Position numbers and translations under genes: made by a program. From NCBI RefSeq assembly GCF_963675065.2, contig NZ_CAXXLR010000001.1:56550-120549 (forward strand): DNA of 64,000 nt. Reading direction: 5' to 3'. Shown here piece by piece: positions 29,885 to 53,725 of this stretch (positions within the stretch are counted from its first letter, which is position 1; the number at the start of each line of letters is the position of its first letter). The notes beneath the pieces were generated by a model that searched no databases, had not been told where the DNA came from, and saw nothing but the letters and a program-made list of their open reading frames with translations. Origin of the DNA: an uncultured Draconibacterium sp. (lineage in GTDB: Bacteria > Bacteroidota > Bacteroidia > Bacteroidales > Prolixibacteraceae).

Positions 29885-30442
29885 ATGATACTGAAAATTA
29901 AAAATATGGAAAGCAGCCGGTGTAAAACATTGGTAAAGCAGGAAATGACCAGGCTTGGCTTTCATGAAATTTCAGTAGAACTGGGCGAAGTAGAATTTGA
30001 AGGCGATATCTCAAATGAAGAGTTACAGTTATTCGATTCGGCCCTTAAAAATTTGGGCCTTGAAATACTGGTGGATAAAAGGAGCCGACTTATTGCAAAA
30101 ATTAAAGATGCTGTTGATCAGTTGGTCTACCTCACCGACGATCTCCCAAGGCCAAACTATTCCGAGTACATCAGCCAAAAGGTAAATCTTAGTTACAGTT
30201 CGCTTAGCAATGTCTTTTCAGCAATGGAAAACACCACCATTGAAAAGTATATTATTGCACAACGAATTGAACGGGTGAAAGAGCTGCTTATCTATTCCGA
30301 TCTTAGCCTCAGCGACATTGCTTTCAAAATGCATTTTAGTAGTGTGGCTCATTTATCCAACCAGTTTAAGAAAGTTACCGGTTTAACCCCTTCCTTTTTC
30401 AGGAAAAACAGAATTAACAATAACGAAACGAATGATAATTGA
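29885..30442 (+). CDS. AraC-family regulator with HMA-like N-terminus (SxxC variant)
   Basis: KIKNMESSRC N-terminus; LSLSDIAFKMHFSSVAHLSNQFKKVTGLTP AraC HTH. Confidence 0.9.
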   Translation: MILKIKNMESSRCKTLVKQEMTRLGFHEISVELGEVEFEGDISNEELQLFDSALKNLGLEILVDKRSRLIAKIKDAVDQLVYLTDDLPRPNYSEYISQKVNLSYSSLSNVFSAMENTTIEKYIIAQRIERVKELLIYSDLSLSDIAFKMHFSSVAHLSNQFKKVTGLTPSFFRKNRINNNETNDN

Positions 30443-30475
30443 AAAGGCCGTCGTTGTTAATAACGACAGCCTTTT
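30442..30475. terminator. Bidirectional intrinsic terminator
   Basis: aaaaggccgtcgtt...aacgacagcctttt between convergent genes. Confidence 0.75.
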
Positions 30476-30502
30476 GTGAATTGATTGATTGCTGATATTC
30501 TG

Positions 30503-31120
30503 TTAAAACCGGTATCCAAGCGATAGCCCGTATCCGGTATTTCTAAGCGTTTTTTCACTGTTTGAAGTATCATCCGGATAAATGTTCATCATCCCCATTT
30601 GTGTATTTAATTGCACAAATAATCCTCCTGCCATTTCATATCCGAAGAAAAGATTGCCCCCCGCATCGAACGGTTTAAAAGTTCTGTCCGGATTGCCTGA
30701 CCCCAGGTCTTTACTAAATTCAATATCTTCTCCCCCGATTCCGTACGCCAGGTAAGGCCCAAATCCAAGCATAAAATAGCCATTCCCTAACAGGGCTTTG
30801 TATACAAAATTCAACGGCAATTCAACATACGATAGTTTATAAGTAACGCCTGAAGTTTTTGCGCCTTTTGTGCTAAAAAGCAAACCCGGCTGAAAATAAA
30901 ACTGAGGCGCAACGGGCAATTGAACATTTGCACCGACGTGAAAACCAACAAGCATATCATTTTTTAGTTTGTCGCCACTGGCATCTTTCCCGTTCAGATT
31001 CTGAAGATTTACGCCTCCCAAAATGGCAAATGCTGTTTTTGAATTATCGGTGCCCTGAGCAAAAACCAGGGAAGCGGATAGCATTAATACCATTGCGATG
31101 AAAATAAATTTTGTCTTCAT
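30503..31120 (-). CDS. Outer-membrane beta-barrel protein (porin family)
   Basis: Signal peptide; QPGLLFSTKG, LSYVELP; terminal GYRF. Confidence 0.85.
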   Translation of the reverse strand: MKTKFIFIAMVLMLSASLVFAQGTDNSKTAFAILGGVNLQNLNGKDASGDKLKNDMLVGFHVGANVQLPVAPQFYFQPGLLFSTKGAKTSGVTYKLSYVELPLNFVYKALLGNGYFMLGFGPYLAYGIGGEDIEFSKDLGSGNPDRTFKPFDAGGNLFFGYEMAGGLFVQLNTQMGMMNIYPDDTSNSEKTLRNTGYGLSLGYRF

Positions 31121-31148
31121 AATAAATAATTTTAAGTGAGTTTATGGA

Positions 31149-31820
31149 TTAATCAACTGAATTTTGCTGGGCTTCTGCTTTCATCTTCTCGTTGGCAGTA
31201 ATCAAAAATTCAACCCGCCGGTTTTGTGTCTGGCCGTTTGCCGAATCGTTGGAATATTTTGGCAGATTTTCGCCAAAACCTTTAATGCTTAAACGATCAT
31301 TGGCAATACCTTTACCCGACAGGTAACCGGAAACAGCACCGGCTCGTTGTTCCGATAAAGTTTGGTTATACGCTTCACTCCCTTTATCGTCGGTATGTCC
31401 CTGAACTTCAATATCGGTATCCGGATAACTATTCAATACCAGAACCAGTTTGTCCAGGTTTGTTTTTGCATCATTTGACAGGTTTGATTTATCAAAGGCA
31501 AACAGCACGTTGCTGCTAAATTCAACCACAATACCTTCTCCCACGCGTTCAACTTTTGCATCGGGTACAGTATTTTTAATTTCTTCTGCCTGCTTATCCA
31601 TCTGCCGACCAATTACAGCGCCCGAAGCGCCACCCACTGCGGCACCAATTATTGCACCCAGTGCAGTATTGCCTGAAGTCCGGCCAATTACAGCGCCAGC
31701 CGTACCACCGGCTGCAGTTCCTATTACTGCACCTTTCTGTGTTTTGTTCCATGTTGCACAGCCCATAAAAATAAAGGCTGAACTTAATACGATTAGAAAA
31801 CTAATTTTTAGCTTAATCAT
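31149..31820 (-). CDS. OmpA-family lipoprotein with glycine zipper
   Basis: Lipobox FMGC, glycine zipper, GHTD..G...NQ.LS..RA, NRRVE; probable ATG at 31820. Confidence 0.9.
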   Translation of the reverse strand: MIKLKISFLIVLSSAFIFMGCATWNKTQKGAVIGTAAGGTAGAVIGRTSGNTALGAIIGAAVGGASGAVIGRQMDKQAEEIKNTVPDAKVERVGEGIVVEFSSNVLFAFDKSNLSNDAKTNLDKLVLVLNSYPDTDIEVQGHTDDKGSEAYNQTLSEQRAGAVSGYLSGKGIANDRLSIKGFGENLPKYSNDSANGQTQNRRVEFLITANEKMKAEAQQNSVD

Positions 31821-31880
31821 TTTTGTAGTTTTAATTGTTAAAAACATTTATTTAATTCGGAAGAGAATGTCAGTTGGGCA

Positions 31881-32048
31881 TCAAATTTTAAAATCTTCCA
31901 ATGCATTCATTCCATATCGCTCAGGGCTTTTATTTCGTGAATTTTGAATTTGCGTTAGTTGATCTCTAAGTATCAAGACATCTTGCTCTCCAACGGCCTG
32001 CCACACATCTTTGTAGCGCTTATTCTTCGCCTTTATTTTTAATCCCAT
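31881..32048 (-). CDS. Possible 55-aa small protein behind box #11
   Basis: MGLKIKAKNKRYKDVWQAVGEQDVLILRDQLTQIQNSRNKSPERYGMNALEDFKI*; ATG at a distance from the -7 similar to other box genes. Confidence 0.35.
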   Translation of the reverse strand: MGLKIKAKNKRYKDVWQAVGEQDVLILRDQLTQIQNSRNKSPERYGMNALEDFKI

Positions 32049-32121
32049 CGCTTGTACTTTTCCTTTATTAACAGCTTGTTATAAAATCAATTAAAGTTAG
32101 GTGGGTTTTTCTGGTGAGGTG

Positions 32122-32160
32122 TTACATAACTTTCAAGAACTGTTACATCATTCACACATT
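32122..32160 (-). promoter_or_regulatory. Repeat box #11 (divergent from #12)
   Basis: Reverse complement AATGTGTGAA TGATGTAA N13 TTATGTAA; TAACTTTA at 32099-32092. Confidence 0.85.
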
Positions 32161-32323
32161 ATGCAGGTGTTTGGAATGAATTGAAACCATTGATAATAAG
32201 ATTTTCTTGCATTATCCTGATAGTACCTCAAAAACCAGAGAAAGTTTCTGACTAAAAAATAGCTAAAGCTGTGTGTTATTTTATAGGCGAACTCAGGTTA
32301 TTACAACCCGGTCGCATGTGAAA

Positions 32324-32362
32324 AAAGTGTGAATTATGTAAATTTTTATCAGATTTGTGTAA
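32324..32362 (+). promoter_or_regulatory. Repeat box #12
   Basis: AAAGTGTGAA TTATGTAA N13 TTGTGTAA; TATTTTAG at 32385. Confidence 0.8.
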
Positions 32363-32415
32363 CAAACCTCTACCCGGTGTTTCTTATTTTAGCACTTAAA
32401 TCATTCCGAAAATTG

Positions 32416-32586
32416 ATGAATGGAAATACGCTTTTAAAGGGAATGACTTTTTATACGATTATTATCGCTGTGATCATAATCATGGTTTATCTGCTGCCTG
32501 ACGGTAAAAATTGGATGGTGGGCCCAATGTATGATCAGGGAAATAACAGACATAATCTGATGGGAATGGGCTCAAATCATAATTAG
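32416..32586 (+). CDS. Small single-TM protein
   Basis: MNGNTLLKGMTFYTIIIAVIIIMVYLLP...; probable ATG at 32416 downstream of box #12. Confidence 0.5.
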   Translation: MNGNTLLKGMTFYTIIIAVIIIMVYLLPDGKNWMVGPMYDQGNNRHNLMGMGSNHN

Positions 32587-32770
32587 TCTGGAATAGTAAA
32601 TCTAATAAGGGAATGCGTATATTTATATATAGTTTTATGGGGAAGAGCATCTTTCATATTATTCATACTTCGGCAATAAATTGCGCGACGATAATGTCAG
32701 GCCTCTGATATTCTGTTTTGCAGGCAGTTGAGGGTTAATTCGTAGTAAATAAATTATAAAAGGTTAAAAT

Positions 32771-35677
32771 TTGAAAATCAAAAAAGTAAAACCGGTTGTT
32801 TCATCGCATGACAAAAAGCCCGTGAAGTTTCCAATAATTGGAATCGGAGCATCGGCCGGTGGTTTGGAAGCTTTGGAACAATTGCTTAGTAATGTGCCTG
32901 AAAATAGTGGAATGGCGTTTATTGTCATTCAACATTTAGATCCAACACATAAAGGAATGCTTCCTGAATTGCTTCAACGCATTTCCAGGATAAAGGTATA
33001 CCAGGCAAAAGACAAAATGAAAGTGAATCCCAACTGTATTTATGTGATTCCACCCAACAAAAGCATGTCGATTTTAAAAAGCACGCTTTATCTATTCGAC
33101 CCCGTTGAAGCACGGGGAATGCGTCTACCCATCGATTTTTTCCTGCATTCGCTCGCCGATGATCAAAAAGAATTTGCTGTAGGTATTATTCTTTCGGGCA
33201 TGGGTTCTGATGGTAGTGTCGGAATTGGTGCCATCAAAGAAAAAAACGGAATTGTAATGGTACAGGAACCTGAAACCGCAAAATTCGACAGTATGCCGCG
33301 TAATGCCATTAATTCCGGGTTGGTTGATGTTGTTGCTCCTCCTAAAGAAATCCATTTAAAATTAGTTGAATTTCTTGAACAGGTAACTCTTGTACAAACA
33401 GATAAAGCTTTTGGAGAGAAAAACAAAAGTGCGCTGGATAAAATAATTATTTTACTCCGCACACATACCGGGAACGATTTTTTGCTCTACAAAAAGAACA
33501 CGGTTTACCGACGTATCGAAAGACGAATGGGTGTGCATAAAATTGGTCAAATCAATTCGTACGTTCATTTTTTGCAGGAAAACCCGGAAGAAGTGCATAT
33601 TCTGTTTAAAGAGCTGATGATTGGTGTTACCAATTTTTTTCGCGATCCCCTGGTTTGGAAAGAATTAAAGAAAACCGTTATTCCGCCAAAGATTGATAAA
33701 AAACAATCGGCCTCAACAATCAGGGCATGGATACCCGGCTGTTCTACTGGCGAGGAGGCTTATTCGCTGGCCATTGTATTTAAGGAAGTGTTGGAAGAAA
33801 TTAATCCGCACGGAGGATTCTCATTGCAGGTATTTGCAACCGATCTTGACAACGACGCCATTGAAAAGGCAAGAAAAGGAATATTTCCGGTAAATATAGA
33901 AGCGGATGTCTCGCCAAAACGCCTGAGCCGTTTTTTCTCCAAAACGGAGGATGGTTATTTGATAAATAAAGAGATCAGGGAATCCATAATATTTGCACAG
34001 CACAATATTATCATGCATCCGCCTTTTACCAACATCGATTTTATTTCGTGCCGGAACCTGCTTATTTATTTGGATCCCGAGTTGCAAAAGAAATTGCTGG
34101 GATTGTTTTATTACAGCTTGAATCCGGAAGGAATTTTGCTGCTGGGAAATTCAGAAACACTGGGTTCACAAAGCCATCTTTTCACACCCGAAAATTCAAG
34201 TCTAAAAATATACAAACGCGGTAATGCCAACCTGTATCCCGAATTGTTTGATTTCCCTTCTTCTTTTTCAAGGCCAAAACTAACCATTTACGAAAACAAA
34301 GTACCCGATAAACCCATTATGAATATTCAATCACTTGTTGATCAATTATTATTGAAGCAATTTTCACCTCCCAGTGTTTTGGTAAACGAAAACGGCGACA
34401 TTCTTTACATCAGCGGACGAACAGGGAAATATTTGGAACCTGCCGTAGGAAAGGCAAACCTGAATATTTTTGCCATGTTGCGCCCGGGATTTCAGAATGA
34501 TTTTGCCATTGCTTTCCGCAAAGTTGTAACAAAAAAGGAAACGGTGATTTTGCACAAGGTAAAAATTGGTACAAACGGAAGTACAATCACTTTAAATGTT
34601 ACAATTCAATGGGTGAATAAACCTGAAGCGTTATATGGGAAAATATTGATAATTTTTGCAGATGTTGCCAGGTCTTCTGAGCAGGTTTCACATCCTGATG
34701 AAGGAAAACATGCAGTCGGTTCTGCCAGGGAAAAAGAATTGGAAGAAGAATTGGAGCATACCCGTGAGGAAGTGCAGAACATTACGGAAGAAATGCAGAC
34801 TTCGCAGGAAGAGTTGAAATCAACCAATGAAGAATTACAATCAACCAACGAAGAACTGCAATCAACCAACGAGGAACTAACCACTTCGAAAGAAGAGATG
34901 CAAAGCCTGAACGAGGAGTTACAAACCGTAAATGCTGAACTGCAGTCGAAAGTAGATGATTACTCGCGGGTAAATAACGACATGAAAAATTTGCTAAACA
35001 GCACCGATATTGCCACCTTATTTCTCGATAAGGAGCTAAATATTCGTCGGTTTACAAACCAGGCAACCAAAATTTTCAAGCTTATAAAAAGCGACATCGG
35101 ACGTCCGTTTACCGACCAGGTTTCCCAACTCATTTACCCGGATTTGGCAGAAGATGCCCTTGAAGTTTTGCGAACACTTATTTTTATCGAGAAACAAATC
35201 CCAACAAAAGACGGCAGGTGGTTTTCAACACGCATAATGCCCTATCGCACTTTCGACGACAGAATTGATGGATTGGTCATCACTTTTATTAATGTCTCAG
35301 ATTTAATGCTGACGGAAGAAAAACTAAATGAAACCGACCAGTTCAACCGTCTCCTACTTGAGCAACATCCCGATGTAATCATCAAATTATCTGCCGATTG
35401 GAAAATACTGGACTTTAATTCAGCCGCGGAACAAGTTTTTGGGAAAAAGTGCGAATATGTGATAAATAAAAATTATTTGGAATTGTTTGTTCCTGAACCT
35501 GAAAGGGATAAAACGAAACAACAAATGGACAAGCTGTTGAAAAAGCCTGATAAGACTAAAATAAAGATGAAGGCAATTGGTGCAAACGGTGTTGAAATGG
35601 AAATCAACTGGACGGCTAATGTCCTTCATAATAAACTGAATTTACCAATGGTTGTTATTATTACTACAAAAAAATGA
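32771..35677 (+). CDS. CheB-CheR-coiled coil-PAS-PAS fusion protein
   Basis: CheB triad in GASAGG, IQHL, LSGMGSDG; CheR PGCSTGEE, ATDLD, CRNLLIY; (STNEELQ)n coil; PAS domains; TTG start. Confidence 0.92.
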   Translation: MKIKKVKPVVSSHDKKPVKFPIIGIGASAGGLEALEQLLSNVPENSGMAFIVIQHLDPTHKGMLPELLQRISRIKVYQAKDKMKVNPNCIYVIPPNKSMSILKSTLYLFDPVEARGMRLPIDFFLHSLADDQKEFAVGIILSGMGSDGSVGIGAIKEKNGIVMVQEPETAKFDSMPRNAINSGLVDVVAPPKEIHLKLVEFLEQVTLVQTDKAFGEKNKSALDKIIILLRTHTGNDFLLYKKNTVYRRIERRMGVHKIGQINSYVHFLQENPEEVHILFKELMIGVTNFFRDPLVWKELKKTVIPPKIDKKQSASTIRAWIPGCSTGEEAYSLAIVFKEVLEEINPHGGFSLQVFATDLDNDAIEKARKGIFPVNIEADVSPKRLSRFFSKTEDGYLINKEIRESIIFAQHNIIMHPPFTNIDFISCRNLLIYLDPELQKKLLGLFYYSLNPEGILLLGNSETLGSQSHLFTPENSSLKIYKRGNANLYPELFDFPSSFSRPKLTIYENKVPDKPIMNIQSLVDQLLLKQFSPPSVLVNENGDILYISGRTGKYLEPAVGKANLNIFAMLRPGFQNDFAIAFRKVVTKKETVILHKVKIGTNGSTITLNVTIQWVNKPEALYGKILIIFADVARSSEQVSHPDEGKHAVGSAREKELEEELEHTREEVQNITEEMQTSQEELKSTNEELQSTNEELQSTNEELTTSKEEMQSLNEELQTVNAELQSKVDDYSRVNNDMKNLLNSTDIATLFLDKELNIRRFTNQATKIFKLIKSDIGRPFTDQVSQLIYPDLAEDALEVLRTLIFIEKQIPTKDGRWFSTRIMPYRTFDDRIDGLVITFINVSDLMLTEEKLNETDQFNRLLLEQHPDVIIKLSADWKILDFNSAAEQVFGKKCEYVINKNYLELFVPEPERDKTKQQMDKLLKKPDKTKIKMKAIGANGVEMEINWTANVLHNKLNLPMVVIITTKK

Positions 35678-35681
35678 AGTC

Positions 35682-36230: not shown

Positions 36231-36323
36231 GCTTGCGAATACCCCTTCTGTAGGCAGGCATCTGGTACCAATAAAATCCATCGTCCTAAAATATTAGCTA
36301 TCAGACTATAATAGTAGTAAATT

Positions 36324-36348
36324 CACTTTAAACACTACCTTTAGAAAG
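36324..36348 (+). promoter_or_regulatory. Promoter of GH130 copy 2
   Basis: cactttaaacactacctttagaaag; matches 2240-2264. Confidence 0.6.
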
Positions 36349-36366: not shown

Positions 36367-37839
36367 ATGCAGGTAGCCATAAACAGAAAGGACATAAAAT
36401 TTATGCCTGATTCATCGAGGGTAATTGCACGGTTTCTATACACCGGCGATGAACGGGCGCTAAATACCATTCGATCGGTACTTGGCATAACAGAAGTATC
36501 AGCATTAGAGGCGCTAAATCCCATTCTAAGGGACTACTCCATGCGTCATAGAAATATCTCTAAAATATTTGAAAAACACTTTAACAAAATTTCTCATCTG
36601 TTAAAACAGTTGAAAATTGATTCTGACACTCTCAGCGTATTTCAAAAAATACTGATTGGCTCCTACTTTACCATGGAATATTCAATTGAATCGGCAGCCT
36701 TTTTTAATCCGTCGATTATGGAGCATCCCGATCAGTCGGAGACGGGCACGGAAGAAAAAAGGGTTATTCTAAGTTTCAGGGCGACCGGAGAAGGACATAT
36801 TTCTTCTATTGTTTTCAGAACAGGAGTCCTGGATAAAAACAACAATCTTTCGATTGAACCGGTGGGCAAAATGCTGGAAGAAGCAAAGCATATCAGGAGG
36901 TATGTATATGAAAAAGATGCCTTCAAAAGCAAACTGAACGAGATGAAGGATTTTCACGCCATTATTCCTCCTGGTCTAATTCTGGATAAGTTGAACGATA
37001 CATTTACGTATGGAGAACTGCGCGATTGTATAAAAGAAGGTAGAAAATCATTGCATCTTGCAGCAGATAAAGAAATTCTGTTTAACCAGATTATCTGGCT
37101 GGCCTCGTCACATTACGAACTTGATTTCTCATTAGATACCAACATTTCGGAACGGGTAATTTTTCCGGTTTCGACAAATGAAAAAAATGGAATTGAAGAT
37201 GCACGTTTCGTAAAATTTGCTGATGATGACGGCAAAATGAATTATTATGCCACCTACACCGCATACGACGGCACCACCATTTTACCTAAAATGCTTGACA
37301 CAAGAGATTTTTACCATTTCAGGGTGTTGCCTCTTCATGGCGAGATTGCCCAAAACAAAGGAATGGCACTTTTCCCGCGCAAAGTGAACGGTAAATATGC
37401 CATGCTGTGCCGTTTGGATGGTTTCAACAATTACATCGCTTTTTCTGATAATATTTCAATTTGGCGCGAAGCAAAATTGTTGCAGCAGCCAAAATTTCCG
37501 TGGGAATTTATTCAAATCGGAAATGGAGGCTCTCCTATTGAAACACCGGAAGGTTGGCTGGTAATTACACACGGAGTAGGACCGATGCGCGAATATGTTC
37601 TCGGTGCATCGCTGTTCGATCTTCAAAATCCGGAAAAAGAGATTGGCCGGTTGAAATCGCCACTGCTAATACCTAATACCGAAGAGAGAGAAGGATACGT
37701 GCCCAATGTAGTTTATTCCTGCGGATCGATGATCAATAATGATGAGTTGATAATTCCATACGCCATGTCGGATTATGCATCTACTTATGCCACCGTTAAC
37801 CTTAGAGAACTTTTGAATGAGTTGAAGAATTCGAAATAA
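36367..37839 (+). CDS. Glycoside hydrolase family 130-like protein (copy 2)
   Basis: Colinear paralog of 2282-3751 with long identical peptide stretches. Confidence 0.85.
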   Translation: MQVAINRKDIKFMPDSSRVIARFLYTGDERALNTIRSVLGITEVSALEALNPILRDYSMRHRNISKIFEKHFNKISHLLKQLKIDSDTLSVFQKILIGSYFTMEYSIESAAFFNPSIMEHPDQSETGTEEKRVILSFRATGEGHISSIVFRTGVLDKNNNLSIEPVGKMLEEAKHIRRYVYEKDAFKSKLNEMKDFHAIIPPGLILDKLNDTFTYGELRDCIKEGRKSLHLAADKEILFNQIIWLASSHYELDFSLDTNISERVIFPVSTNEKNGIEDARFVKFADDDGKMNYYATYTAYDGTTILPKMLDTRDFYHFRVLPLHGEIAQNKGMALFPRKVNGKYAMLCRLDGFNNYIAFSDNISIWREAKLLQQPKFPWEFIQIGNGGSPIETPEGWLVITHGVGPMREYVLGASLFDLQNPEKEIGRLKSPLLIPNTEEREGYVPNVVYSCGSMINNDELIIPYAMSDYASTYATVNLRELLNELKNSK

Positions 37840-37986: not shown

Positions 37987-39546
37987 ATGGCTAATTCAAC
38001 TACCAATCAAAACTCAGGAAAAAGAAAATCAACACCTTCTGCAAAGGAAGCTTTAATTACCTCTGAAATTCGTTACCGCCGCTTATTTGAATCGGCAAAA
38101 GACGGAATTTTAATTCTTGATGCCGAAACGGGGATGATTGTTGACGTGAATCCGTTTTTAATAGAGTTACTGGGTTATTCGAAAGAAAGTTTTATTGAAA
38201 AAACAATATGGGAAATAGGGTTCTTAAAGGATATTATTGACAATAAAGAAAAATTTCTGGAATTACAGCAAAAGAAATATGTCCGTTATGAAGATTTACC
38301 TCTGGAAACAGCAGACGGGCGAAGAATTCATGTAGAATTTGTGAGCAATGTATACTTATCAGACAGTCAAAAGGTTATCCAATGCAATATACGCGATATA
38401 ACAGAGCGCAAGCTATCAGAAGCGACAATTATCAATGGAAAAAATATGCTGCGTACATTGATAGATAACCTTCCCGCAATGATTTATATTAAAGATATTG
38501 AGTGCAGGAAAGTTATTGCCAATATAACTGATATCAAAAATATTGGATATCAAAACGAAGAAGAGATCCTTGGAAAAACAGACATTGAACTTTTCCCGGG
38601 GGACATTGGCCAACGAGGTTATGCCGATGATCAAAAGGTAATTAACTTAGGAATAGCAATCAATAACAGGGTTGAAGATTTTTACAATAGCGAAGGGAAA
38701 AGAAGTTGGATATCCACTACTAAAATACCTTTAAGAAATAACGAAGGTGAAATTACCGGACTTGTTGGGATCGGCTATGATATTACTGAAAGTAAAAAGA
38801 TTGAGGAAGAATTGACTTATGCCAAAGAAAAGGCAGAAGAAAGCGACCGTCTGAAATCAGCTTTTTTGGCCAATATGAGCCATGAAATCCGCACACCAAT
38901 GAATGGTATTCTTGGGTTTACAAATCTTTTGCAAGACCCTGAGTTAACCGGCGAAGAACAGCAAGAATATATTGGAATTATTCAAAAAAGTGGCGATCGA
39001 ATGTTAAATACGGTGAATGATATTATCAATATCTCCAAAATTGAAGCCGGGCAAACGACAGTTTTTGTTTCTGAATTTAATATTGACGAACAACTCAAAA
39101 CTATTTATTCCTTTTTTAAACCGGAAACCGATAAAAAAGGCATCCAATTTATTTTAAAAAATTCATTGACAGAACAGGACGATGTGATTGAATCTGACAA
39201 GGAGAAACTAGATTCAATTCTCACAAATCTGGTTAAAAATGCTATTAAATTTTGTGATAAGGGCAAAATTGAATTTGGCTGTTTTAAAAAAGAAAGAGGA
39301 CTGCAATTTTATGTTAAGGATTCAGGCATTGGTATACCCCTCAACAGACAGCAAGCCATTTTCGAACGTTTTATTCAGGCCGATATTGATGATAAGAATG
39401 CACTGCAAGGATCGGGGTTGGGTTTAGCAATTGCAAAAGCATATACAAAAATGCTGGGTGGAAAAATTTGGGTTGAAAGCGCAGAAGGCCAGGGGTCGAC
39501 TTTCTTTTTTAATATTGCTTACAAATCTAATAAAGTGCACAGGTAA
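37987..39546 (+). CDS. PAS-PAS sensor histidine kinase without receiver
   Basis: Two PAS/PAC domains, SHEIRTPMN H-box, NAIKFC, GSGLGL. Confidence 0.9.
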   Translation: MANSTTNQNSGKRKSTPSAKEALITSEIRYRRLFESAKDGILILDAETGMIVDVNPFLIELLGYSKESFIEKTIWEIGFLKDIIDNKEKFLELQQKKYVRYEDLPLETADGRRIHVEFVSNVYLSDSQKVIQCNIRDITERKLSEATIINGKNMLRTLIDNLPAMIYIKDIECRKVIANITDIKNIGYQNEEEILGKTDIELFPGDIGQRGYADDQKVINLGIAINNRVEDFYNSEGKRSWISTTKIPLRNNEGEITGLVGIGYDITESKKIEEELTYAKEKAEESDRLKSAFLANMSHEIRTPMNGILGFTNLLQDPELTGEEQQEYIGIIQKSGDRMLNTVNDIINISKIEAGQTTVFVSEFNIDEQLKTIYSFFKPETDKKGIQFILKNSLTEQDDVIESDKEKLDSILTNLVKNAIKFCDKGKIEFGCFKKERGLQFYVKDSGIGIPLNRQQAIFERFIQADIDDKNALQGSGLGLAIAKAYTKMLGGKIWVESAEGQGSTFFFNIAYKSNKVHR

Positions 39547-45386: not shown

Positions 45387-46274
45387 ATGAATTTCATCGA
45401 TTATTACAAAATATTAGGGATAGACAAAAAAGCCACTGCAAGTGACATCAAAAAGGCCTATCGTAAACAAGCCCGAAAATATCACCCCGATTTGAATCCC
45501 AAAGATGCAGATGCCAAAAAGAACTTTCAGCAAATTAATGAAGCCAATGCTGTACTTAGCGACCCCGAAAAACGAAAGAAATACGACAAATATGGGAAAG
45601 ACTGGCAACATGCCGATCATTTTGAAAATACAAAACAGTATCAGGAACAAAGTTCAGGTTTTAGCGGGCGGGAATATTCGCAGGCTCATTCTGGCCGTGA
45701 TTTTTCCGATTTTTTCGAATCTATGTTTGGTGGTTCAACAAATACAGGAAGAAGCAGGCAGGTAAAATTCAGAGGCGAGGATTATTATGCGAAGTTTCAG
45801 CTTAAACTTACAGATGCTTATAAGCCCCACCAACAAACCCTTTCGGTAAATGGTAAGAATATAAGAATAACCATCCCCGCCGGAATTGAAAACGGACAAA
45901 CCATTAAGATTTCAGCACATGGGGGGACGGGAATAAATGGCGGGCCAAACGGCGATTTGTATATTACATTTTCAATAGCTATTCATCCGGGCATTAAAAG
46001 ACTGGGAAATGATTTATATACGCATGTTGATTTAGAATTATACACAGCGGTATTGGGTGGCGAAATAACCATCGATACCTTGAGCGGAAAAGTGAAATTA
46101 AAAGTAAAGGCCGAAACGCAAAATGGAAGCAAGGTAAAACTCAAAGGGAAAGGATTTCCTGTCTATAAAAAGGAGGGGCAGTTCGGAGATTTATACATAA
46201 CCTATGTGATTAAAATCCCAACTCATTTAACCGAAAAGCAAAAAGGCTTATTTGCCGAGCTATCAAAATCTTAA
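45387..46274 (+). CDS. cbpA: DnaJ-class chaperone (CbpA-like)
   Basis: J domain with HPD, DnaJ_C, no zinc finger. Confidence 0.88.
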   Translation: MNFIDYYKILGIDKKATASDIKKAYRKQARKYHPDLNPKDADAKKNFQQINEANAVLSDPEKRKKYDKYGKDWQHADHFENTKQYQEQSSGFSGREYSQAHSGRDFSDFFESMFGGSTNTGRSRQVKFRGEDYYAKFQLKLTDAYKPHQQTLSVNGKNIRITIPAGIENGQTIKISAHGGTGINGGPNGDLYITFSIAIHPGIKRLGNDLYTHVDLELYTAVLGGEITIDTLSGKVKLKVKAETQNGSKVKLKGKGFPVYKKEGQFGDLYITYVIKIPTHLTEKQKGLFAELSKS

Positions 46275-46284
46275 TCTTTTAATC

Positions 46285-46587
46285 ATGAAGGAAACACAAC
46301 CAGATGATTTAATAGCGGTAAATGAATTCTGTGCCAATCACAACATCGGAATTACTTTTATAGACCATTTGCAGCAAAGCGGGTTAATTGAAATCTATAT
46401 TATAGAATCAAAGAACTTTGTTGAAAAGGAGCAGCTTCCTCAGCTTGAAAAATTTGTTCGTTTCTATTACGATCTGGATATTAACTTCGAAGGAATTGAG
46501 ACCATAAACTATTTATTGCAACGAATGGAAAACCTACAAAATGAGATAGTTGCGCTTAAAAACAGGCTTCGGCTTTATGAAGGATAG
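46285..46587 (+). CDS. cbpM: Chaperone modulator CbpM (MerR-like)
   Basis: Follows cbpA; YDLDINFEGI..LL..ME.LQ; probable ATG at 46285. Confidence 0.8.
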   Translation: MKETQPDDLIAVNEFCANHNIGITFIDHLQQSGLIEIYIIESKNFVEKEQLPQLEKFVRFYYDLDINFEGIETINYLLQRMENLQNEIVALKNRLRLYEG

Positions 46588-47794: not shown

Positions 47795-47813
47795 CAAATT
47801 AAATTTCATTACA

Positions 47814-48005
47814 ATGAACAAAGGAACAGTAAAATTTTACAATGAAACCAAAGGATTTGGGTTTATAAAAGATGCCGAATCATCGAAAGAATATTATGTA
47901 CATTCAACCGGAGTAACGGATAATATCGGGGAAAATGATGAAGTAACGTTTGATTTGGAAGAAGGAAAAAAAGGATTAAATGCAGTAAATGTTAAACTGG
48001 CTTAG
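47814..48005 (+). CDS. Cold-shock protein
   Basis: GTVKFYN..KGFGFI, YYVH. Confidence 0.92.
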   Translation: MNKGTVKFYNETKGFGFIKDAESSKEYYVHSTGVTDNIGENDEVTFDLEEGKKGLNAVNVKLA

Positions 48006-48035
48006 TTTACAACGATTACGATCATTTATATTTTT

Positions 48036-48060
48036 ATCCCGCTAATAGCGGGATTTTTTT
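48036..48060. terminator. Intrinsic terminator between convergent genes
   Basis: atcccgct-aat-agcgggat followed by a T tract. Confidence 0.7.
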
Positions 48061-50307
48061 TTATACCAATTTTAAATCCGACCGGTGAAACTCTTCGTAG
48101 GCCTGCAGTACGGTTAAATGAGAAATTAGATACGCAAGCGAACTTTCTGCTCCCTGATTCCGGTTAACACCATAGCTTTCGAAACCATCGCAACAACCTT
48201 TGGTTTCGAAATCGTACAAACTCATCCGCAAATCATTTTCACCCAGAAACCACAAAAAGGAGGTGTACAGTTTGTTGAGATAATCCTTATCCTTTGTCAG
48301 GTAAAATGCCTGATGATACATTAAAACCGTGGCCATTGCATCAATAGGTTGCTGGGCAAAAACAGAACGTTCTCCTTCCTTTTTATACCATTTTTCATTG
48401 CCAATAACCGAAAGGTATTCATCTTTTAACGTATGTTTTGTTAAAAAATTCATCGAATCAATGGCTGTTTTTGTAATGTTCTGGTCGTTCAAAATTTCGG
48501 CAGAATGTAAAAGAGCCAAGGGTAAAATTCCATTATCGTAAGCCAGCAATGCTTCAAACCAATTCCAGTCTTCTGAACGATTTTCGTCGTAATGTTTCAT
48601 CAATACATTCGCCAGATTTCTTAATCTTTCGGTCATTGAATCGTCAGATGGATTACTCTTCAGATAATAGCTAATACCAATCATTGTATTGGCAATTCCC
48701 CGAATTGATTTTAGTTTTTCAAAATTAGGAGCAGCCGTGAAAAACACCAGTCTGCCGGTTTGATAATAAGCATCGTTTGGTGCATTCGCCAATAAATAAC
48801 CCAGGGCCCAAATTGTTCTTCCAAACGAATCTTCAGAGCCCACTTCATCCAGGAAATTTCGGTTAAAACTCAGGAAATTCCGAAAGGTCCCGTCAGCGTT
48901 TTGCATATAATGAATGTAACTTAAGTAAACAGGCGATAATTCAAGTGCACGCATATCTTTTTTCTGACGGTAAGCTTTTAAAACCATTAGCAAGGCGCGC
49001 GAATTATCATCAAGGCAATACCCTTCCTTTAAATTTGGTATGCCAAATTTTGCATGTTGAATAATACCTGTATCGTCTGTTAATCGATTTATATGAGCCA
49101 GGGAAAAGGGAGGAAGAATGAGTAAATCTGGTTCAGGTTCTTTTCGCTTAAGAACCGGTTGCTCATCCTTCATTATTTTTTCAGCAAGTTGCATGTATCT
49201 TTCGCCCGTTTTTGGCCAGGTAATTTTTTTGCCATATTCATCGGCATTTTGTTTCAGTTTCCTGAGCTCTTCTGGGTTATCAAAAAGATCAATTAGAGTT
49301 TCAGCCAAATCATCCGAGTCATTAAACCTGAACAACCGGCCTCTTCCTTTGTCCAGCAATTCAGCAGCATGCCAGTATGGTGTTGAGAGAACAGCCGCAC
49401 CAGTACCTACTGCATACGAAAGGGTTCCGCTGGTAATCTGGGCTTCGTTTAAATAAGGAGTGATGTAAATATCGCAGGCATACAAATATTTGAATAAGTC
49501 CTGTTCGTCAATAAATTCATTGAGAAATGTCACATGATTTTCGAGTTGGAGACTTTTTACCAGACGTAAAAGAAAAATCCGGTATTCTTCGCCTGAATGA
49601 CGAAGCACATTCGGATGGGTTTTACCCAAAACAATGTAAATAAGCTCCGGATATTTTTTTACTACTTCCGGCAAAGCTTTAATTACTGTTTCAATACCTT
49701 TGCTTCGGCCAATAAAGCCAAAAGTAAGCAGCACTTTCTTTTTCTCAAGTTTAAACTCCTTTTTCGATTTTTCGGGACTGAAACGAATGTCCGGCACACC
49801 ATGTTCAATCAATGCGATTTTTTCTTTGGGTACATCATAAATTGTTGTCAGAAACTCAATCGCCTTATGGCTCATCACCACAATTTTATGTGCCATTTTA
49901 CAGATTTCCTTCAGTACTGCTTTCTCGTTGTAAGAAGGCGTTTTAAGAATGGTATGAAGCGTAACAATGAGCGGAATTTCAAGCCGGTGAAGCAAGGGAA
50001 GGATATATACCCCACTTTGTCCGCCAAATATGCCAAATTCGTGCTGGAGAACACAAACATCGGCGCCGCTTAAATTAATGTATTTCACGGCTTTCAAATA
50101 ATCTTCCTGATGATCTTGCCTGATGGTAACTTTTACTTCTTCAGGATATTTATAGGTGAGCTCGTTATCGTTTAATGCAACCACAAAACCTTCATTTGTT
50201 AGTTCATTTGGCTCATTTTGTCGTAACATCGATTTGAACAGGTTGTTCGTGAAGGTTCCAATACCACATTCGCGTGGTGGATATGTTGCAATATAAGTGA
50301 TCTTCAT
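48061..50307 (-). CDS. GT4 glycosyltransferase fused to a C-terminal (alpha/alpha)6 domain
   Basis: YPPRECGIGTF, QHEFGIFGG, QITSGTL..STPYW; C-terminal DDTGIIQH, YCLDDN.RAL, NQGAES. Confidence 0.85.
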   Translation of the reverse strand: MKITYIATYPPRECGIGTFTNNLFKSMLRQNEPNELTNEGFVVALNDNELTYKYPEEVKVTIRQDHQEDYLKAVKYINLSGADVCVLQHEFGIFGGQSGVYILPLLHRLEIPLIVTLHTILKTPSYNEKAVLKEICKMAHKIVVMSHKAIEFLTTIYDVPKEKIALIEHGVPDIRFSPEKSKKEFKLEKKKVLLTFGFIGRSKGIETVIKALPEVVKKYPELIYIVLGKTHPNVLRHSGEEYRIFLLRLVKSLQLENHVTFLNEFIDEQDLFKYLYACDIYITPYLNEAQITSGTLSYAVGTGAAVLSTPYWHAAELLDKGRGRLFRFNDSDDLAETLIDLFDNPEELRKLKQNADEYGKKITWPKTGERYMQLAEKIMKDEQPVLKRKEPEPDLLILPPFSLAHINRLTDDTGIIQHAKFGIPNLKEGYCLDDNSRALLMVLKAYRQKKDMRALELSPVYLSYIHYMQNADGTFRNFLSFNRNFLDEVGSEDSFGRTIWALGYLLANAPNDAYYQTGRLVFFTAAPNFEKLKSIRGIANTMIGISYYLKSNPSDDSMTERLRNLANVLMKHYDENRSEDWNWFEALLAYDNGILPLALLHSAEILNDQNITKTAIDSMNFLTKHTLKDEYLSVIGNEKWYKKEGERSVFAQQPIDAMATVLMYHQAFYLTKDKDYLNKLYTSFLWFLGENDLRMSLYDFETKGCCDGFESYGVNRNQGAESSLAYLISHLTVLQAYEEFHRSDLKLV

Positions 50308-50519
50308 TTATTGATGATTACGTTTAAGGAAGTTAATATTCCAATGTTATTTATGTCGAGCGGGAGGAGTTCTCTTTCGAAATAAACCAGATCTTTATGC
50401 TTGGGTTTTTCCTGTATCTTACAATAATAAATCCGGTCGATATACCGCCTGATTATCAGATTTTGATTTGGATTAACTTTTGCCCGTACAACTTCTCCTT
50501 CTTTAAATTTGTTTTCCAT
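50304..50519 (-). CDS. Small hypothetical protein (SH3-like)
   Basis: KFKEGEVVRAK..RYIDRIYYC..YFERELL; overlaps the GT start. Confidence 0.65.
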   Translation of the reverse strand: MENKFKEGEVVRAKVNPNQNLIIRRYIDRIYYCKIQEKPKHKDLVYFERELLPLDINNIGILTSLNVIINK

Positions 50520-50552
50520 GGTTCACCTCTTCCGTTTTCTGTTTTGTTCTAC

Positions 50553-50822
50553 TTAAATATCTACCGGCATTGAAATGGTAATTGGCCTTAATACGGTATG
50601 TTTTTTTTGCATTTCAGCATTTGCCGGATCGTCAATGATTGACTGTAATTTTTCCATGTCCGTAACTTCAATTACCAATGCAATCGAATTGGGATCATTA
50701 GCATCTCTAAACGTTTTGAAACTGGTTATTGCGGGTGCAAAAACCCTTTTCCTGTCATCATGTCCTTTAAGCCATGTGTCAAAATCTCCTACCTTATGTC
50801 GTGCTACAATTGTTGTCATCAT
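50553..50822 (-). CDS. Small dimeric alpha/beta-barrel (ABM-like) protein
   Basis: VARHKVGDFDTW..FRD.NDPN. Confidence 0.65.
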   Translation of the reverse strand: MMTTIVARHKVGDFDTWLKGHDDRKRVFAPAITSFKTFRDANDPNSIALVIEVTDMEKLQSIIDDPANAEMQKKHTVLRPITISMPVDI

Positions 50823-50938
50823 TTTGTTCTTTTAAGATGCTTATGCCTACTCTATTCGGTTTTCGGCTAACTCGATTTAAAGCTCTTCTTTCAACTATTT
50901 TATGCGATAGATGAATACTACTCTGACTAAGTTAGGCC

Positions 50939-51052
50939 TTAATCGCTTTTCCTGGCTTTTTTGGCTGCTTTAGCTGCCCGTTTTTCTTTCAAGCTCATAA
51001 CGGCTTCCTTCTTCTCGTTCTTCCGTTCTTTTCCTTCCTTACTTTTTGCCAT
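50939..51052 (-). CDS. 37-aa Lys-rich small protein
   Basis: MAKSKEGKERKNEKKEAVMSLKEKRAAKAAKKARKSD*; not in the ORF track. Confidence 0.75.
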   Translation of the reverse strand: MAKSKEGKERKNEKKEAVMSLKEKRAAKAAKKARKSD

Positions 51053-51076
51053 GATATTTATTATTAGATATTTAAA

Positions 51077-51427
51077 CTATAATATATTTCCTTCGTACCC
51101 ACTTTTAATCACTGTTGAAATCATCTTGAATCGACCATTCGCCTTAACTGTATTGGAACTATGAGCCGGAATAATTATGCCTTGTCCCGTTTGAATTATG
51201 GTTGACTGATCATCAATCACTACTTCGGCTGTACCTTCAATTATCTGTATAAAGGTGTCAAACGGAGATATCTTCTCGGCCAGAGCCTCGCCGGTATCAA
51301 TGGCCATAACAACTATGTTTCCGGTTGTTTTCCGGATAATTGTTTTACTTACCACCGAATTGGGAACATACTGAATGATTTCGATGAGGATGCGAATTTT
51401 CGATTTTTCTAATTCCTTCATTTGCAT
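51077..51427 (-). CDS. Cupin-domain protein
   Basis: SPFDTFIQIIEG.AE...IIIPAH. Confidence 0.8.
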   Translation of the reverse strand: MQMKELEKSKIRILIEIIQYVPNSVVSKTIIRKTTGNIVVMAIDTGEALAEKISPFDTFIQIIEGTAEVVIDDQSTIIQTGQGIIIPAHSSNTVKANGRFKMISTVIKSGYEGNIL

Positions 51428-51482
51428 GAGTCTTCAAATAAGATAATCTCCTCAAAGTTACATCCGCTCAATTTTGAAAGTG

Positions 51483-51521
51483 TTACACAATCGATGTTAT
51501 AATTTACATCATTCACACATT
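51483..51521 (-). promoter_or_regulatory. Repeat box #15
   Basis: Reverse complement AATGTGTGAA TGATGTAA N13 TTGTGTAA; AAACTTTG at 51460-51453. Confidence 0.88.
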
Positions 51522-51524
51522 TTG

Positions 51525-53021
51525 CTACTTGATGCCAATTTGGCGCAACCCGTAAACGGTTCTGAAATGATACCCATAAACAGTGTATGTAAGGGCGTCA
51601 ACCATTAATTTTGGCTTATTGAAAAGGGTCCAGATGACAAATTTCCAATATTCAGTTCTCCCCTTGTCGAGGAAACCAATTACATAAACCGATTTTAAAA
51701 ATGCGAACAGCAGCGAAAATTTTATTTTGGATTTTCCTTTTGTCAAACGATTGTAGTTAAGTAATAACCGCCTGACCCTTTTGTAATAGGGTTTTACCGA
51801 GTAAATATTTTTGATTATTCTTTTATAACCTTCCTGAAGCTCGTTGGAATCCATTTTAGGAATAAAGTTCATTGATGAATCGGTATTATTTCCTGTAGCT
51901 TCCACGGTTAACCGGTTTTCTGCATTTAACTGATTGTAAAGTTTGGTGTTTTTGGGCGCGTTTAATAATCCAACCATAGCCGAAACAATTCCACTTTGTT
52001 GAATGAAATCGATTTGACGTTGAAAAACTGACGGCGTGTCGCTGTCGAAACCAACAATAAAACCACCTGACACCTGAATTCCAGCTTGTTGTATCGTTTT
52101 AACGCTTTGAATAAGATCCCTGTTTTTATTCTGAACTTTATTGCACGATTGAAGAGATACTTCATCGGGAGTTTCAATGCCAATAAAAGCAGCATTAAAA
52201 CCTGCATCAATTAACTGCGACATGAGCTCTTTATCATCGGCCAGATTTATCGAACTCTGGATACTAAAATTAAAAGGGTACTTATGGCTTTGCATCCATT
52301 TTTTCATTGCCGGAAGCAAACTCTTTTTTATTTCTTTGATGTTTCCAATAAAATTATCATCGACAATTGAAACCGGCCCACGCCATTTAATGGTATCGTA
52401 CAAAACATCCAGTTCGTTAATAATTTGGGGGGTGCTTTTCATCCTCATTTTATGCCCCAGCAATGACGTAATTTCACAAAAGCTACAGTTATATGGACAT
52501 CCACGTGTTACCTGGATATTCATGTTAGCATAGTCTTTTGCTGATAGCAAATGAAAATCGGGAGCTGGTGTTTGGGTTAAATCTGCATATTTATCTGTAG
52601 CATAAACCCGTTGGAGTTGTCCGGTATTGATATCGGCCAGAAAAAGGGGCATGGTGATTTCTGCCTCATTCAAAATAAAGTGATCTACATCCGGATAATT
52701 GGGATATTCCTGGGTAAAAAGCGGACCACCTGCAACTATTTTTTTGCCCCATTTTTTGCTTTCCGCAATTACCTTGGTTACCGATTCCTTTTGAATATAC
52801 ATGGCGCTGATAAAAACATAATCAGCCCACTGAATATCGCTTGTCTGAAGCGGTGAGATATTTAAATCCACCAGTTTTTTTTGCCATGTTTCAGGCAGCA
52901 TTGCCGACACCGTAATTAAACCAAGTGGCGGAACTGCAGCTTTTTTCGAAATAAATTTCAGGGCATGGGTAAAACTCCAGAACGAATCCGGACACTTTGG
53001 ATAAACCAATAATACTTTCAT
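51525..53021 (-). CDS. B12-binding radical SAM protein (DUF4070, HpnP-like architecture)
   Basis: PPLGLITV, AGGP, RGCPYNCSFC (CxxxCxxC), IGIET, GGFIVGFD. Confidence 0.88.
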   Translation of the reverse strand: MKVLLVYPKCPDSFWSFTHALKFISKKAAVPPLGLITVSAMLPETWQKKLVDLNISPLQTSDIQWADYVFISAMYIQKESVTKVIAESKKWGKKIVAGGPLFTQEYPNYPDVDHFILNEAEITMPLFLADINTGQLQRVYATDKYADLTQTPAPDFHLLSAKDYANMNIQVTRGCPYNCSFCEITSLLGHKMRMKSTPQIINELDVLYDTIKWRGPVSIVDDNFIGNIKEIKKSLLPAMKKWMQSHKYPFNFSIQSSINLADDKELMSQLIDAGFNAAFIGIETPDEVSLQSCNKVQNKNRDLIQSVKTIQQAGIQVSGGFIVGFDSDTPSVFQRQIDFIQQSGIVSAMVGLLNAPKNTKLYNQLNAENRLTVEATGNNTDSSMNFIPKMDSNELQEGYKRIIKNIYSVKPYYKRVRRLLLNYNRLTKGKSKIKFSLLFAFLKSVYVIGFLDKGRTEYWKFVIWTLFNKPKLMVDALTYTVYGYHFRTVYGLRQIGIK

Positions 53022-53134
53022 TTTCTCTGATTTTCCGTAAACTCCTAACTATAATCTCTTCCCCTTTTTTGAGGAACTCAATTGCCGGGGCTGCTCATTT
53101 AAGGTAAATTTCGTAAGATTGAACGTGTAATGTG

Positions 53135-53173
53135 TTACACAATTCTGATGATTATTTACATCATTCACACATC
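53135..53173 (-). promoter_or_regulatory. Repeat box #16 (overlaps the AraC stop codon)
   Basis: Reverse complement GATGTGTGAA TGATGTAA N13 TTGTGTAA; GAAATTTA at 53112-53105. Confidence 0.85.
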
Positions 53174-53725
53174 TTCGAGTGTGTCGCGCCGTATATTCTT
53201 GAGTTTTTTGAAATGTGTAGGTGTGAGGCCGGTGTATTTTTTAAACTGATTGGAAAGATGAGCGACACTACTGTAGTGCATTTTAAAAGCGATTTCTGAA
53301 AGATTCAGTTCATCATAAACAATTAGTTCTTTTACCCTTTCAATTTTGTGCGTCAGATAAAATTTTTCAATGGTAGTACCTTTCACCTCTGAAAAAAGAT
53401 TGGACAGGTAAGTATAATCGTAATTGAGTTTTTCACTCAGATAATCGGAAAGGTTTACTTTAATTTGATCTTCGGTATAATGAACCAATTCGATAATGGC
53501 ACTTTTTATTTTTTCAACCAGCACACTTTTTTTGTTATCCATTAGTAACAGGCCCGCCTTTTTCAAATCAACTTTTAATTGTTCTAACTGCTCCAGCTGC
53601 ACATCTCCAATAATATTTGCTTCACCTATTTTCACATAAACATAGCGAAGGCCGAGCTTTTCAAGTTCGGCTTTTACCACCATCTGGCAGCGAATACAAA
53701 CCATATTTTTAATGTATAATTTCAA
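53165..53725 (-). CDS. AraC-family regulator with HMA-like CxxC N-terminus
   Basis: YIKNMVCIRC; YDYTYLSNLFSE; LSEIAFKMHYSSVAHLSNQFKKYTGLTP; TTG start. Confidence 0.92.
   Translation of the reverse strand: MKLYIKNMVCIRCQMVVKAELEKLGLRYVYVKIGEANIIGDVQLEQLEQLKVDLKKAGLLLMDNKKSVLVEKIKSAIIELVHYTEDQIKVNLSDYLSEKLNYDYTYLSNLFSEVKGTTIEKFYLTHKIERVKELIVYDELNLSEIAFKMHYSSVAHLSNQFKKYTGLTPTHFKKLKNIRRDTLEDV

Follow-up and report, generated by a model that had tools for sequence, protein, structure and literature searches.

Paralogous AraC-type regulators with an HMA-like domain and a recurrent 46-bp promoter box in Draconibacterium suggest a two-tier stress and envelope regulon

A 64,000-nt stretch of DNA from an uncultured Draconibacterium sp. 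(the window) encodes two paralogous AraC-type regulators, termed A and B here, and carries 16 copies of a 46-bp element (the box), most of them within a box island. Paralog B, a B-type regulator of 186 residues with a TTG start, is an open reading frame (ORF) on the minus strand at 53165-53725, and paralog A, the A-type copy placed in the lower tier, is an ORF of 185 residues on the plus strand at 29885-30442. We compared both genes and their surroundings with 160 related loci (L001-L160), of which 80 are genome loci around B homologs that range from 91% down to 62% identity in several Bacteroidota orders and 80 are metagenome loci around A homologs. The search for related loci was seeded with an alignment of 8 sequences, as an alignment of 96 sequences was too divergent for the purpose.

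The N-terminus of B reads MKLYIKNMVCIRC (KNMVCIRC) and holds both Cys10 and Cys13. An HMA-like domain occupies residues 1-62 (53540-53725), a linker helix residues 65-83, and an AraC DNA-binding domain residues ~90-186 (53168-53458; Pfam HTH_18 58.6 bits, cut-off 33.6), while the four codons of the CxxC motif (TGT ATT CGC TGC) lie at 53687-53698 in the loop between strand 1 and helix 1, all on the minus strand. A candidate Bacteroidota -7 element, TACCTTTA, is found on the same strand at 53754-53747, ~21 nt ahead of the TTG start, and similar TAnnTTTA/G-like strings stand ~25 nt ahead of the start in some B orthologs. Farther upstream, a tRNA-Arg(ACG) gene at 54295-54371 on the minus strand marks the right edge of the box island and is followed by a strong predicted intrinsic terminator (54260-54291, minus strand). 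B would thus be isolated from upstream transcription and need a promoter of its own. No box was detected upstream of B between 53175 and 64000, either by a pattern search allowing three mismatches or by a scan with a position weight matrix (PWM).

Paralog A begins with MILKIKNMESSRC (KNMESSRC), in which Ser10 aligns with Cys10 of B and Cys13 is retained. Its HMA-like part spans 29885-30070, with the SxxC codons at 29912-29923, and its DNA-binding domain ~30152-30439 (Pfam HTH_18 68.7 bits), all on the plus strand. The gene is the second in a unit that starts at box #10 (AAATGTGTGAATGATGTAAATTTTTTCAAGAATAGCGTAACATTTT, 29527-29572, plus strand, PWM score 55.1 bits), continues with a -7-like string read from the sequence (TAATTTTA, 29589-29596, plus strand) and a small CsbD-like gene (29635-29817, plus strand), and ends after A in a terminator-like hairpin at 30450-30467 (plus strand) returned by the terminator scan. 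Another hairpin precedes box #10 at 29320-29345, and the scan found no terminator-like hairpin between the CsbD-like gene and A. This CsbD-like copy has no Pfam match and is assigned through neighbouring paralogs, one of which (16417-16602) matches Pfam CsbD below the curated cut-off (23.7 vs 40 bits, E=4.5e-5). Small genes homologous to it also precede A-type genes in L081, L083, L085, L087, and L098.

The box is sharply defined. Its core, TGTGTGAATGATGTAAAT, has 15 matches at ≤3 mismatches in the window where 0.11 are expected, and the element as a whole consists of two direct repeats, (G)AAT-N2-TGTAAC, placed 21 bp apart, with the distal repeat extended to ATGTGTGAATnATGTAAC. An independent count gave 14 full and 2 partial copies and reproduced the numbering #1-#16 of the initial annotation, including #10 and #16. 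Besides box #10 and two minus-strand copies discussed below (#15 and #16), full boxes have their first base at 14888, 15551, 21455, 21805, 24530, 26580, 28373, 32323, 37859, and 39682 on the plus strand and at 32161 on the minus strand. Scanning the genome loci yielded 221 PWM matches of ≥18 bits in 1.28 Mb, against 0 in first-order Markov simulations, and the same consensus recurs in distant lineages. A -7 element (TAnnTTTG) follows the box in fixed phase; in related genomes, 105 of 189 boxes have the first base of its TTTG at box position 67 (consensus nACCTTTG). With the -7 element at a fixed phase, the proximal repeat would occupy the -33 region, and this geometry is, as read from the DNA, that of a class-II activator site for the housekeeping sigma factor rather than an alternative-sigma promoter. 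An Rfam search of the whole window returned the tRNA-Arg only, so that the boxes match no described RNA motif. A sigma-70 promoter scan performed at shuffle level, being uninformative for Bacteroidota promoters, and only the terminator output of that step was kept. Our literature search found no description of the regulator family or of the box, and the exact box string occurred in no paper.

Box #16 (AGATGTGTGAATGATGTAAATAATCATCAGAATTGTGTAACACATT, 53129-53174, minus strand, PWM score 57.3 bits) overlaps the 3' end of B and holds its stop codon (53165-53167); the last codons of the gene, GAT GTG TGA, lie within the box. It stands as the promoter box of a gene for a B12-binding radical SAM/DUF4070 protein (51525-53021, minus strand, Pfam), a family that follows a box in 14 loci. 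In these respects the initial annotation was accurate: the intact CxxC of B, its plain -7 promoter without an upstream box, the loss of the first Cys in A, the position of A in a CsbD-like unit behind box #10, and the stop codon of B inside box #16 were all recovered.

The overlap between box and stop codon is not peculiar to the window. B-type genes, recognizable by a C-terminus ..LE[DN][VM], have their stop codon covered by a box, at register -10, in 44 of the 80 genome loci and in further metagenome loci. In such genes the last two sense codons and the stop (xAT GTG TGA or AAT ATG TGA) form part of the distal repeat, and the register of -10 is the same across orders (L001-L053 and other loci). 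Among all 160 loci, no B-type gene with a box on its stop codon had a same-strand box upstream, except tandem duplicates fed by the stop-codon box of their neighbour (e.g., L028). In close relatives the next box lies ~1.65 kb farther on, behind the same radical-SAM gene as in the window.

Other members of the family are placed behind boxes. A subfamily with the N-terminal signature IKYMVSxRCKMAVKEE, which has SxxC, carries a box ~90-100 nt upstream. In L036, L063, L101, L113, and L119 a B-type gene and an SxxC paralog of this IKYMVS type stand in tandem, and the box on the stop codon of the former drives the latter directly. The box of A-type genes (I[KR]NMESxRC) lies 126 nt upstream or, where a homologous CsbD-like gene intervenes, 357-359 nt upstream; the arrangement of A in the window is the latter, and the A-type operon is conserved. 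Box density around B-type genes is strongly asymmetric, with 0.12 boxes per 10 kb at 6-10 kb upstream vs 1.7-4.8 per 10 kb downstream. B-type genes would therefore stand at the upstream limit of a box island, as B does in the window. Gene classes in this comparison were assigned by wiring features rather than by tree clusters, average-linkage clustering having failed to split B-type genes from the IKYMVS subfamily.

One paralog thus stands outside the control of the regulon and the other behind its operator, and this layout has been kept in evolution. We conclude from the comparison of loci that the wiring with one copy outside and one copy inside is real and ancient, in line with the master and feedback layout proposed in the initial annotation: box-less B-type genes and box-driven A-type genes recur in the 160 loci. 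Start codons of the B-type and IKYMVS genes in these loci comprised 85 TTG, 58 ATG, and 10 GTG, and the preference for TTG is consistent with low-level expression of a putative upper tier.

A and B are clearly paralogous, with 51% identity over 174 residues (BLASTP E=1e-62). Orthologs of B in Draconibacterium, Maribellus, and Mariniphaga are 82-94% identical, the best reaching 94%, whereas the best non-self orthologs of A reach 82-85%; within the single genome of Maribellus comscasis, the B ortholog is 87% and the A ortholog 81% identical. By these comparisons B is the more constrained copy and A diverges faster. The two proteins share nearly identical strings in one recognition helix, YSSVAHLSNQFKKYTGLTP in B and FSSVAHLSNQFKKVTGLTP in A, as the initial annotation had described. 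Its argument that they should therefore bind the same site did not hold, however. Throughout the regulator family the consensus for the shared helix is SSVAHLSNQFKK, so its presence in both A and B is uninformative about a common site, and we discarded it as proof of one. The first recognition helix and its helix-turn-helix are unlike (DYTYLSNLFSEV in B, SYSSLSNVFSAM in A) and vary between subfamilies too. Judging from the two helices, SSVAHLSNQFKK plausibly reads the invariant TGTAAC, and an identical site preference of A and B cannot be assumed.

Both proteins belong to a large family. A scan of 1.84 billion cluster representatives retrieved 547 clusters at 50% identity with E<1e-30, and the representatives listed are mostly ~180-200 residues long with one architecture. 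AlphaFold2 models (mean predicted local distance difference test score 92.6 for B and 87.6 for A) predict a fold common to both. In B, and similarly in A, strands at residues 2-6, 28-32, 35-38, and 60-62 and helices at 11-23 and 44-56 give an N-terminal beta-alpha-beta-beta-alpha-beta ferredoxin-like layout, which is followed by the linker helix at 65-83 and a seven-helix AraC domain. Many database entries start B-type proteins at Met8 (179 residues), which removes strand 1 of the HMA-like fold.

Membership of the AraC/XylS family is clear from HTH_18 scores of 68.7 bits for A and 58.6 bits for B, both above the cut-off of 33.6; a profile of 96 family members also matches the DNA-binding domains of YesN, AraC, SoxS, and MarA, and Foldseek pairs the C-terminal part with AraC-family DNA-binding domains at template modelling (TM) scores of 0.67-0.80. 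The N-terminal part is more remote from its relatives. Residues 3-61 of the 96-member profile match HMA domains in the PDB (ATP7B 2ew9, 3.3e-5; CopA 1p6t, 2.5e-4; CopZ, ~1e-3), and Foldseek recovers TTHA1718, GolB, HAH1, and CopZ (2roe, 4y2i, 1fe0, 2qif) at TM scores of 0.6-0.68, or 0.59-0.66 when normalised to the target. Searches of A and B with Pfam and NCBIfam returned generic AraC matches only. Together, profile matches and predicted fold bear out the earlier description of the domain as HMA-like, and they indicate that the term is justified as a distant homology beyond the Pfam family boundary. The best explanation for the family is a Bacteroidota-specific group of one-component regulators of ~186 residues, built from an HMA-derived ferredoxin-like domain, a linker helix, and an AraC/XylS domain.

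The genes behind the boxes point to stress and envelope functions. Directly downstream of the island boxes are genes for CsbD-like and YtxH proteins, a holin-X-like protein, OmpA/Gly-zipper lipoproteins, small membrane proteins, a PAS histidine kinase, and unassigned lipoproteins; outer-membrane beta-barrels are also among the driven genes, and deeper in the units lie an M48 peptidase, a PAS hybrid kinase, CheB/CheR-PAS, and Band7 proteins. The same gene families recur behind boxes in other loci. The commonest first gene behind a box is a member of the regulator family itself (38 genes in 37 loci), followed by cupin genes (35 genes in 34 loci), one of which, identified with Pfam, lies in the window at 51077-51427 behind box #15 (51477-51522, minus strand).

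The cysteine positions bear on what, if anything, the regulators sense. In B, the motif M8-V-C10-I-R-C13 falls at the position of the HMA MxCxxC, in the loop between strand 1 and helix 1, while A has M-E-S-S-R-C at this place; only B thus has the complete HMA motif, the first motif Cys being absent from A. In a set of 152 sequences (A, B, and 150 family representatives), 82 have Cys and 43 have Ser at position 10, the remainder being gap or other, while Cys13 is present in ≥90% and Met8 is nearly invariant. Close B orthologs (>82% identity) have CxxC in 109 of 109 scorable sequences, and A-type orthologs have SxxC in 68, TxxC in 16, and CxxC in 1. In both sets of loci combined, wiring and cysteine status are associated: genes that carry a box on the stop codon and none upstream comprise 44 with CxxC and 23 without (22 SxxC, 1 TxxC), a total of 67 that includes genes with too little flank to judge, and box-driven genes comprise 6 with CxxC and 49 without (Fisher p=4e-10, not corrected for phylogeny).

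The pairing of a CxxC master with an SxxC copy that the initial annotation proposed is only partly supported. Box-driven copies are almost all SxxC or TxxC, but roughly a third of the B-type genes with a stop-codon box are SxxC or TxxC as well, which means that Cys10 is not required for the upper-tier position. To judge from the alignment, the feature conserved throughout the family is the single Cys13. Variability at position 10, together with the stress and envelope content of the regulon, argues against a dedicated Cu/Zn sensor. The metal-sensing master of the initial annotation is thus disfavoured, the driven genes that could be called being general-stress and envelope genes with none for metal homeostasis among them. 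As far as the sequences tell, two options are left: either Cys13 by itself suffices for a pairing switch, thiol-based or metal-bridged, or cysteines have no part in sensing.

From paralogy, fold prediction, box statistics, box geometry, and the conserved wiring, we infer a model of DNA binding, activation, hierarchy, and sensing in which the family activates the box regulon as class-II-type activators, with B as upper tier and A as lower-tier target. We put its probability at roughly 55%. Family members would bind the 46-bp box as two subunits, one on each (G)AAT-N2-TGTAAC repeat, and the proximal repeat would replace the -33 element in phase with the sigma-A -7 element, giving class-II-type activation of a general-stress and envelope regulon. 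B would form the upper tier, with its own box-less promoter, a weak TTG start, very high conservation, and a position at the upstream edge of the island. A would be a lower-tier target transcribed from box #10 together with the CsbD-like gene, so that its level would rise only when the regulon is on. If A is an activator, its effect would be feed-forward or positive feedback; if it competes for boxes or is a weaker heterodimer partner, the effect would be damping. Subunit pairing is the most plausible role of the small HMA-like domain. A thiol- or metal-bridged switch, if there is one, would most likely be centred on the near-invariant Cys13, with Cys10 as an optional second ligand.

The same wiring could operate with no cysteine or metal sensing. 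The HMA-like domain would then be only a dimerisation or partner module, the CxxC/SxxC difference near-neutral drift of a relic motif, and the signal would have another point of entry, such as the level of B (TTG start, turnover) or the PAS kinases and CheB/CheR-PAS proteins encoded behind boxes. In the family and among B-type orthologs the residue at position 10 varies (C, S, T, G, or N), several PAS sensor kinases are encoded in the island, and neither the box-driven gene set, with its lack of metal-homeostasis genes, nor the Pfam HMA model, which misses the domain, favours a sensor. However, Cys13 is retained in ≥90% of sequences across the phylum, more than is usual in degenerate HMA domains for a position with a purely structural role. 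Where Cys10 is replaced, the new residue is overwhelmingly the isosteric Ser or Thr rather than a random one, and Cys10 is strictly retained in all close B orthologs. We regard this alternative as unlikely, though it deserves serious attention.

A second alternative concerns the sign of the effect of A. Once induced, A might occupy boxes or heterodimerise with B without activating, and so shut down the response as negative feedback. A is box-driven, its first recognition helix is unlike that of B, Cys10 has been lost, and its faster evolution (82-85% for the best orthologs vs 94% for B) would fit such a role. Yet the DNA-binding domain and fold of A are fully intact, and activation and competition look alike at the level of sequence. 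An antagonistic A is in our view rather doubtful.

Finally, the box might be read by another factor encoded outside the window, either an activator or an alternative sigma factor, with A a mere regulon member and B a mere neighbour whose 3' end overlaps a box. TGTAAC resembles the -35 elements of extracytoplasmic function (ECF) sigma factors, and two ECF sigma factor genes and two response regulator genes are box-driven in other loci. Several features are at odds with this reading. A canonical sigma-A type -7 element (TAnnTTTG) is kept in fixed phase, direct repeats 21 bp apart suit AraC-type binding and not a sigma -35/-10 pair, and the regulator family is the gene most consistently tied to boxes across orders. 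The neighbourhoods hold no other conserved DNA-binding gene; among Pfam-scanned ORFs of the window, the only other DNA-binding regulator domain is that of a CbpM-like MerR_2 protein. We consider a foreign reader of the box improbable.

Several points weigh against the model of the family as activators of the box regulon with B above A. All 160 loci were picked for encoding the regulator family, and the distance gradient of box density is the sole internal control; likewise, the PWM with which all loci were scanned was trained on the boxes of this window. The box could also be bound by a factor whose gene lies in another part of the genome. Cys10 is missing from about one third of the stop-box B-type genes, Pfam HMA (PF00403) matches neither A nor B at E≤1, and none of the assignable recurring box-driven families has a metal-homeostasis function. 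An alignment of the 235 nt upstream of 16 B orthologs revealed no conserved motif, the region being unconserved; this argues against a hidden operator for B and also makes constitutive expression of B an assumption. A search for RNA-seq runs of this organism returned only runs of unknown, probably genomic, type.

The two partial boxes, at 6530 and 16288, depart from the consensus in different ways. Box #4 (16288-16350), upstream of the CsbD-like gene 16417-16602, keeps the distal repeat but has a (GTA/TAG)n microsatellite, GTATTAGTAGTAGTATTAGTAGTAGTAGTA, in place of the proximal one, and may be a decayed promoter or one made variable by repeat slippage. Box #1 (6530-6585) has a perfect distal repeat, a second TGTAAC at a distance of 27 bp rather than 21, and a -7-like ATATTTG that lies nearer; it precedes a 3-hydroxyisobutyrate-dehydrogenase-like gene (6833-7735) by 300 nt. 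The geometry of box #1 is atypical and its function doubtful. For box #16, it is conceivable from its position that an activator bound at the 3' end of the regulator's own gene acts as a roadblock or couples expression through read-through.

In other genomes, box-driven genes include KaiC-like ATPases in 3 loci (one at L043 13046-14785), ECF sigma factors in 2, and stand-alone response regulators in 2; single-locus coordinates in the list of box-driven regulators are L044 10702-11205 and L060 8256-8747. The presence of these genes behind boxes hints at further regulatory layers below the family. Within the island, genes for a CbpA-like DnaJ (45387-46274), the CbpM-like MerR_2 protein (46285-46587), and a cold-shock protein (47814-48005) have no box, and by this token they are stress genes under different control.

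The window also contains duplicated genes: two GH130-like genes (2282-3751 and 36367-37839, 74% nucleotide identity over 300 nt), two PAS histidine kinase genes (22818-24518 and 37987-39546, 71-73%), and two copies of a gene for a 61-residue membrane protein behind boxes #3 and #5 (15661-15835 and 21570-21744, 79%). Near the left edge of the island, a truncated integrase fragment of 78 residues (13159-13395, minus strand) retains only the Arm DNA-binding domain, and the GC content of the island is 0.36-0.385 compared with 0.40-0.41 in the flanks. The integrase fragment, the tRNA-Arg at the edge, and the lower GC content may be traces of an old genomic island; the conservation of B-box synteny across genera weighs against this.

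Elements of the proposed system have counterparts elsewhere. MarA, SoxS, and Rob of E. coli are small AraC-type activators with two helix-turn-helix motifs in which paralogs share one degenerate box and control overlapping stress regulons; in these systems, including the SoxR-to-SoxS cascade, one tier is set by its own transcription and the sites abut or overlap the -35 element. The DNA-binding domains of MarA and SoxS match the A/B family by sequence and fold. However, MarA and SoxS consist of a single domain and bind one 20-bp box as monomers, whereas here an HMA-like domain is added and the site consists of two direct repeats. The upstream tier of SoxR-type cascades is a MerR/MarR-type sensor, while here it would be a paralog of the same family, and the promoters are of the Bacteroidota -33/-7 type.

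AraC, RhaS, and XylS bind as two subunits to direct repeats that recur every 21 bp, of which the proximal one overlaps the -35 position, and they carry an N-terminal domain for dimerisation or sensing. This geometry is like that of the candidate site described here, on which binding by A and B would follow the same pattern. The N-terminal domain of those proteins is a cupin/jelly-roll ligand domain of ~170 residues, in contrast to the 62-residue ferredoxin-like HMA-type domain of A and B, and their regulons serve sugar and aromatic catabolism rather than stress and envelope functions.

The metallochaperones CopZ, Atx1/HAH1, and GolB and the N-terminal domains of ATP7B and CopA have the same beta-alpha-beta-beta-alpha-beta fold, and B shares their M-x-C-x-x-C motif. 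In HAH1 and CopZ, a metal held jointly by the Cys motifs of both partners joins the dimer, and this suggests that a dimerisation switch may operate in the A/B family. Unlike the metallochaperones, the domain is fused here to a DNA-binding domain, its first Cys is often Ser or Thr, it receives no score from Pfam HMA, and there is no genomic link to metal transporters.

General stress responses governed by sigma-B, RpoS, or PhyR-NepR-EcfG resemble the box regulon in their targets (CsbD, YtxH, OmpA-like, Gly-zipper, and small membrane proteins) and in their autoregulated or feed-forward regulators. Those systems use alternative sigma factors, whereas here the housekeeping -7 element is kept, with apparent reliance on an activator. 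We know of no general or stationary-phase stress regulator like RpoS, sigma-B, or PhyR/EcfG that has been defined for Bacteroidota, and our literature search found none. A possible relative is reg of B. fragilis (BF3248/BF9343_3162; BT_1847 in B. thetaiotaomicron), which is described in PMC2707267 and PMC5028390, both citing Casanueva et al. 2008, as a small, metronidazole-induced AraC-family regulator without a cupin domain that is needed for survival of DNA-damaging agents. We mention it as a lead only.

Taken at its widest, the family might be a master regulator of the Bacteroidota general stress response, based on an activator instead of a sigma factor, with a thiol- or metal-bridged HMA-like dimerisation switch on Cys13 and a phylum-wide box regulon in which a box-less upper tier feeds box-driven paralogs; the stop-codon box might in addition self-limit the B transcript, for example as a roadblock that gives rise to non-stop mRNA. 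We offer this wider scheme as speculation that, taken whole, is unlikely to be right. The findings link a large regulator family, a sharply defined promoter box, and a conserved set of stress and envelope genes. If the proposed roles are true, the family would represent an unusual fusion in which an HMA-type domain serves as the input module of an AraC-type DNA-binding domain, and to our knowledge no such HMA-AraC input fusion has been characterised. As far as comparison of sequences carries it, what sets the system apart would be an HMA-derived input domain on an activator of AraC type, together with a stress regulon whose box spans the phylum and a conserved cascade of paralogs in two tiers.

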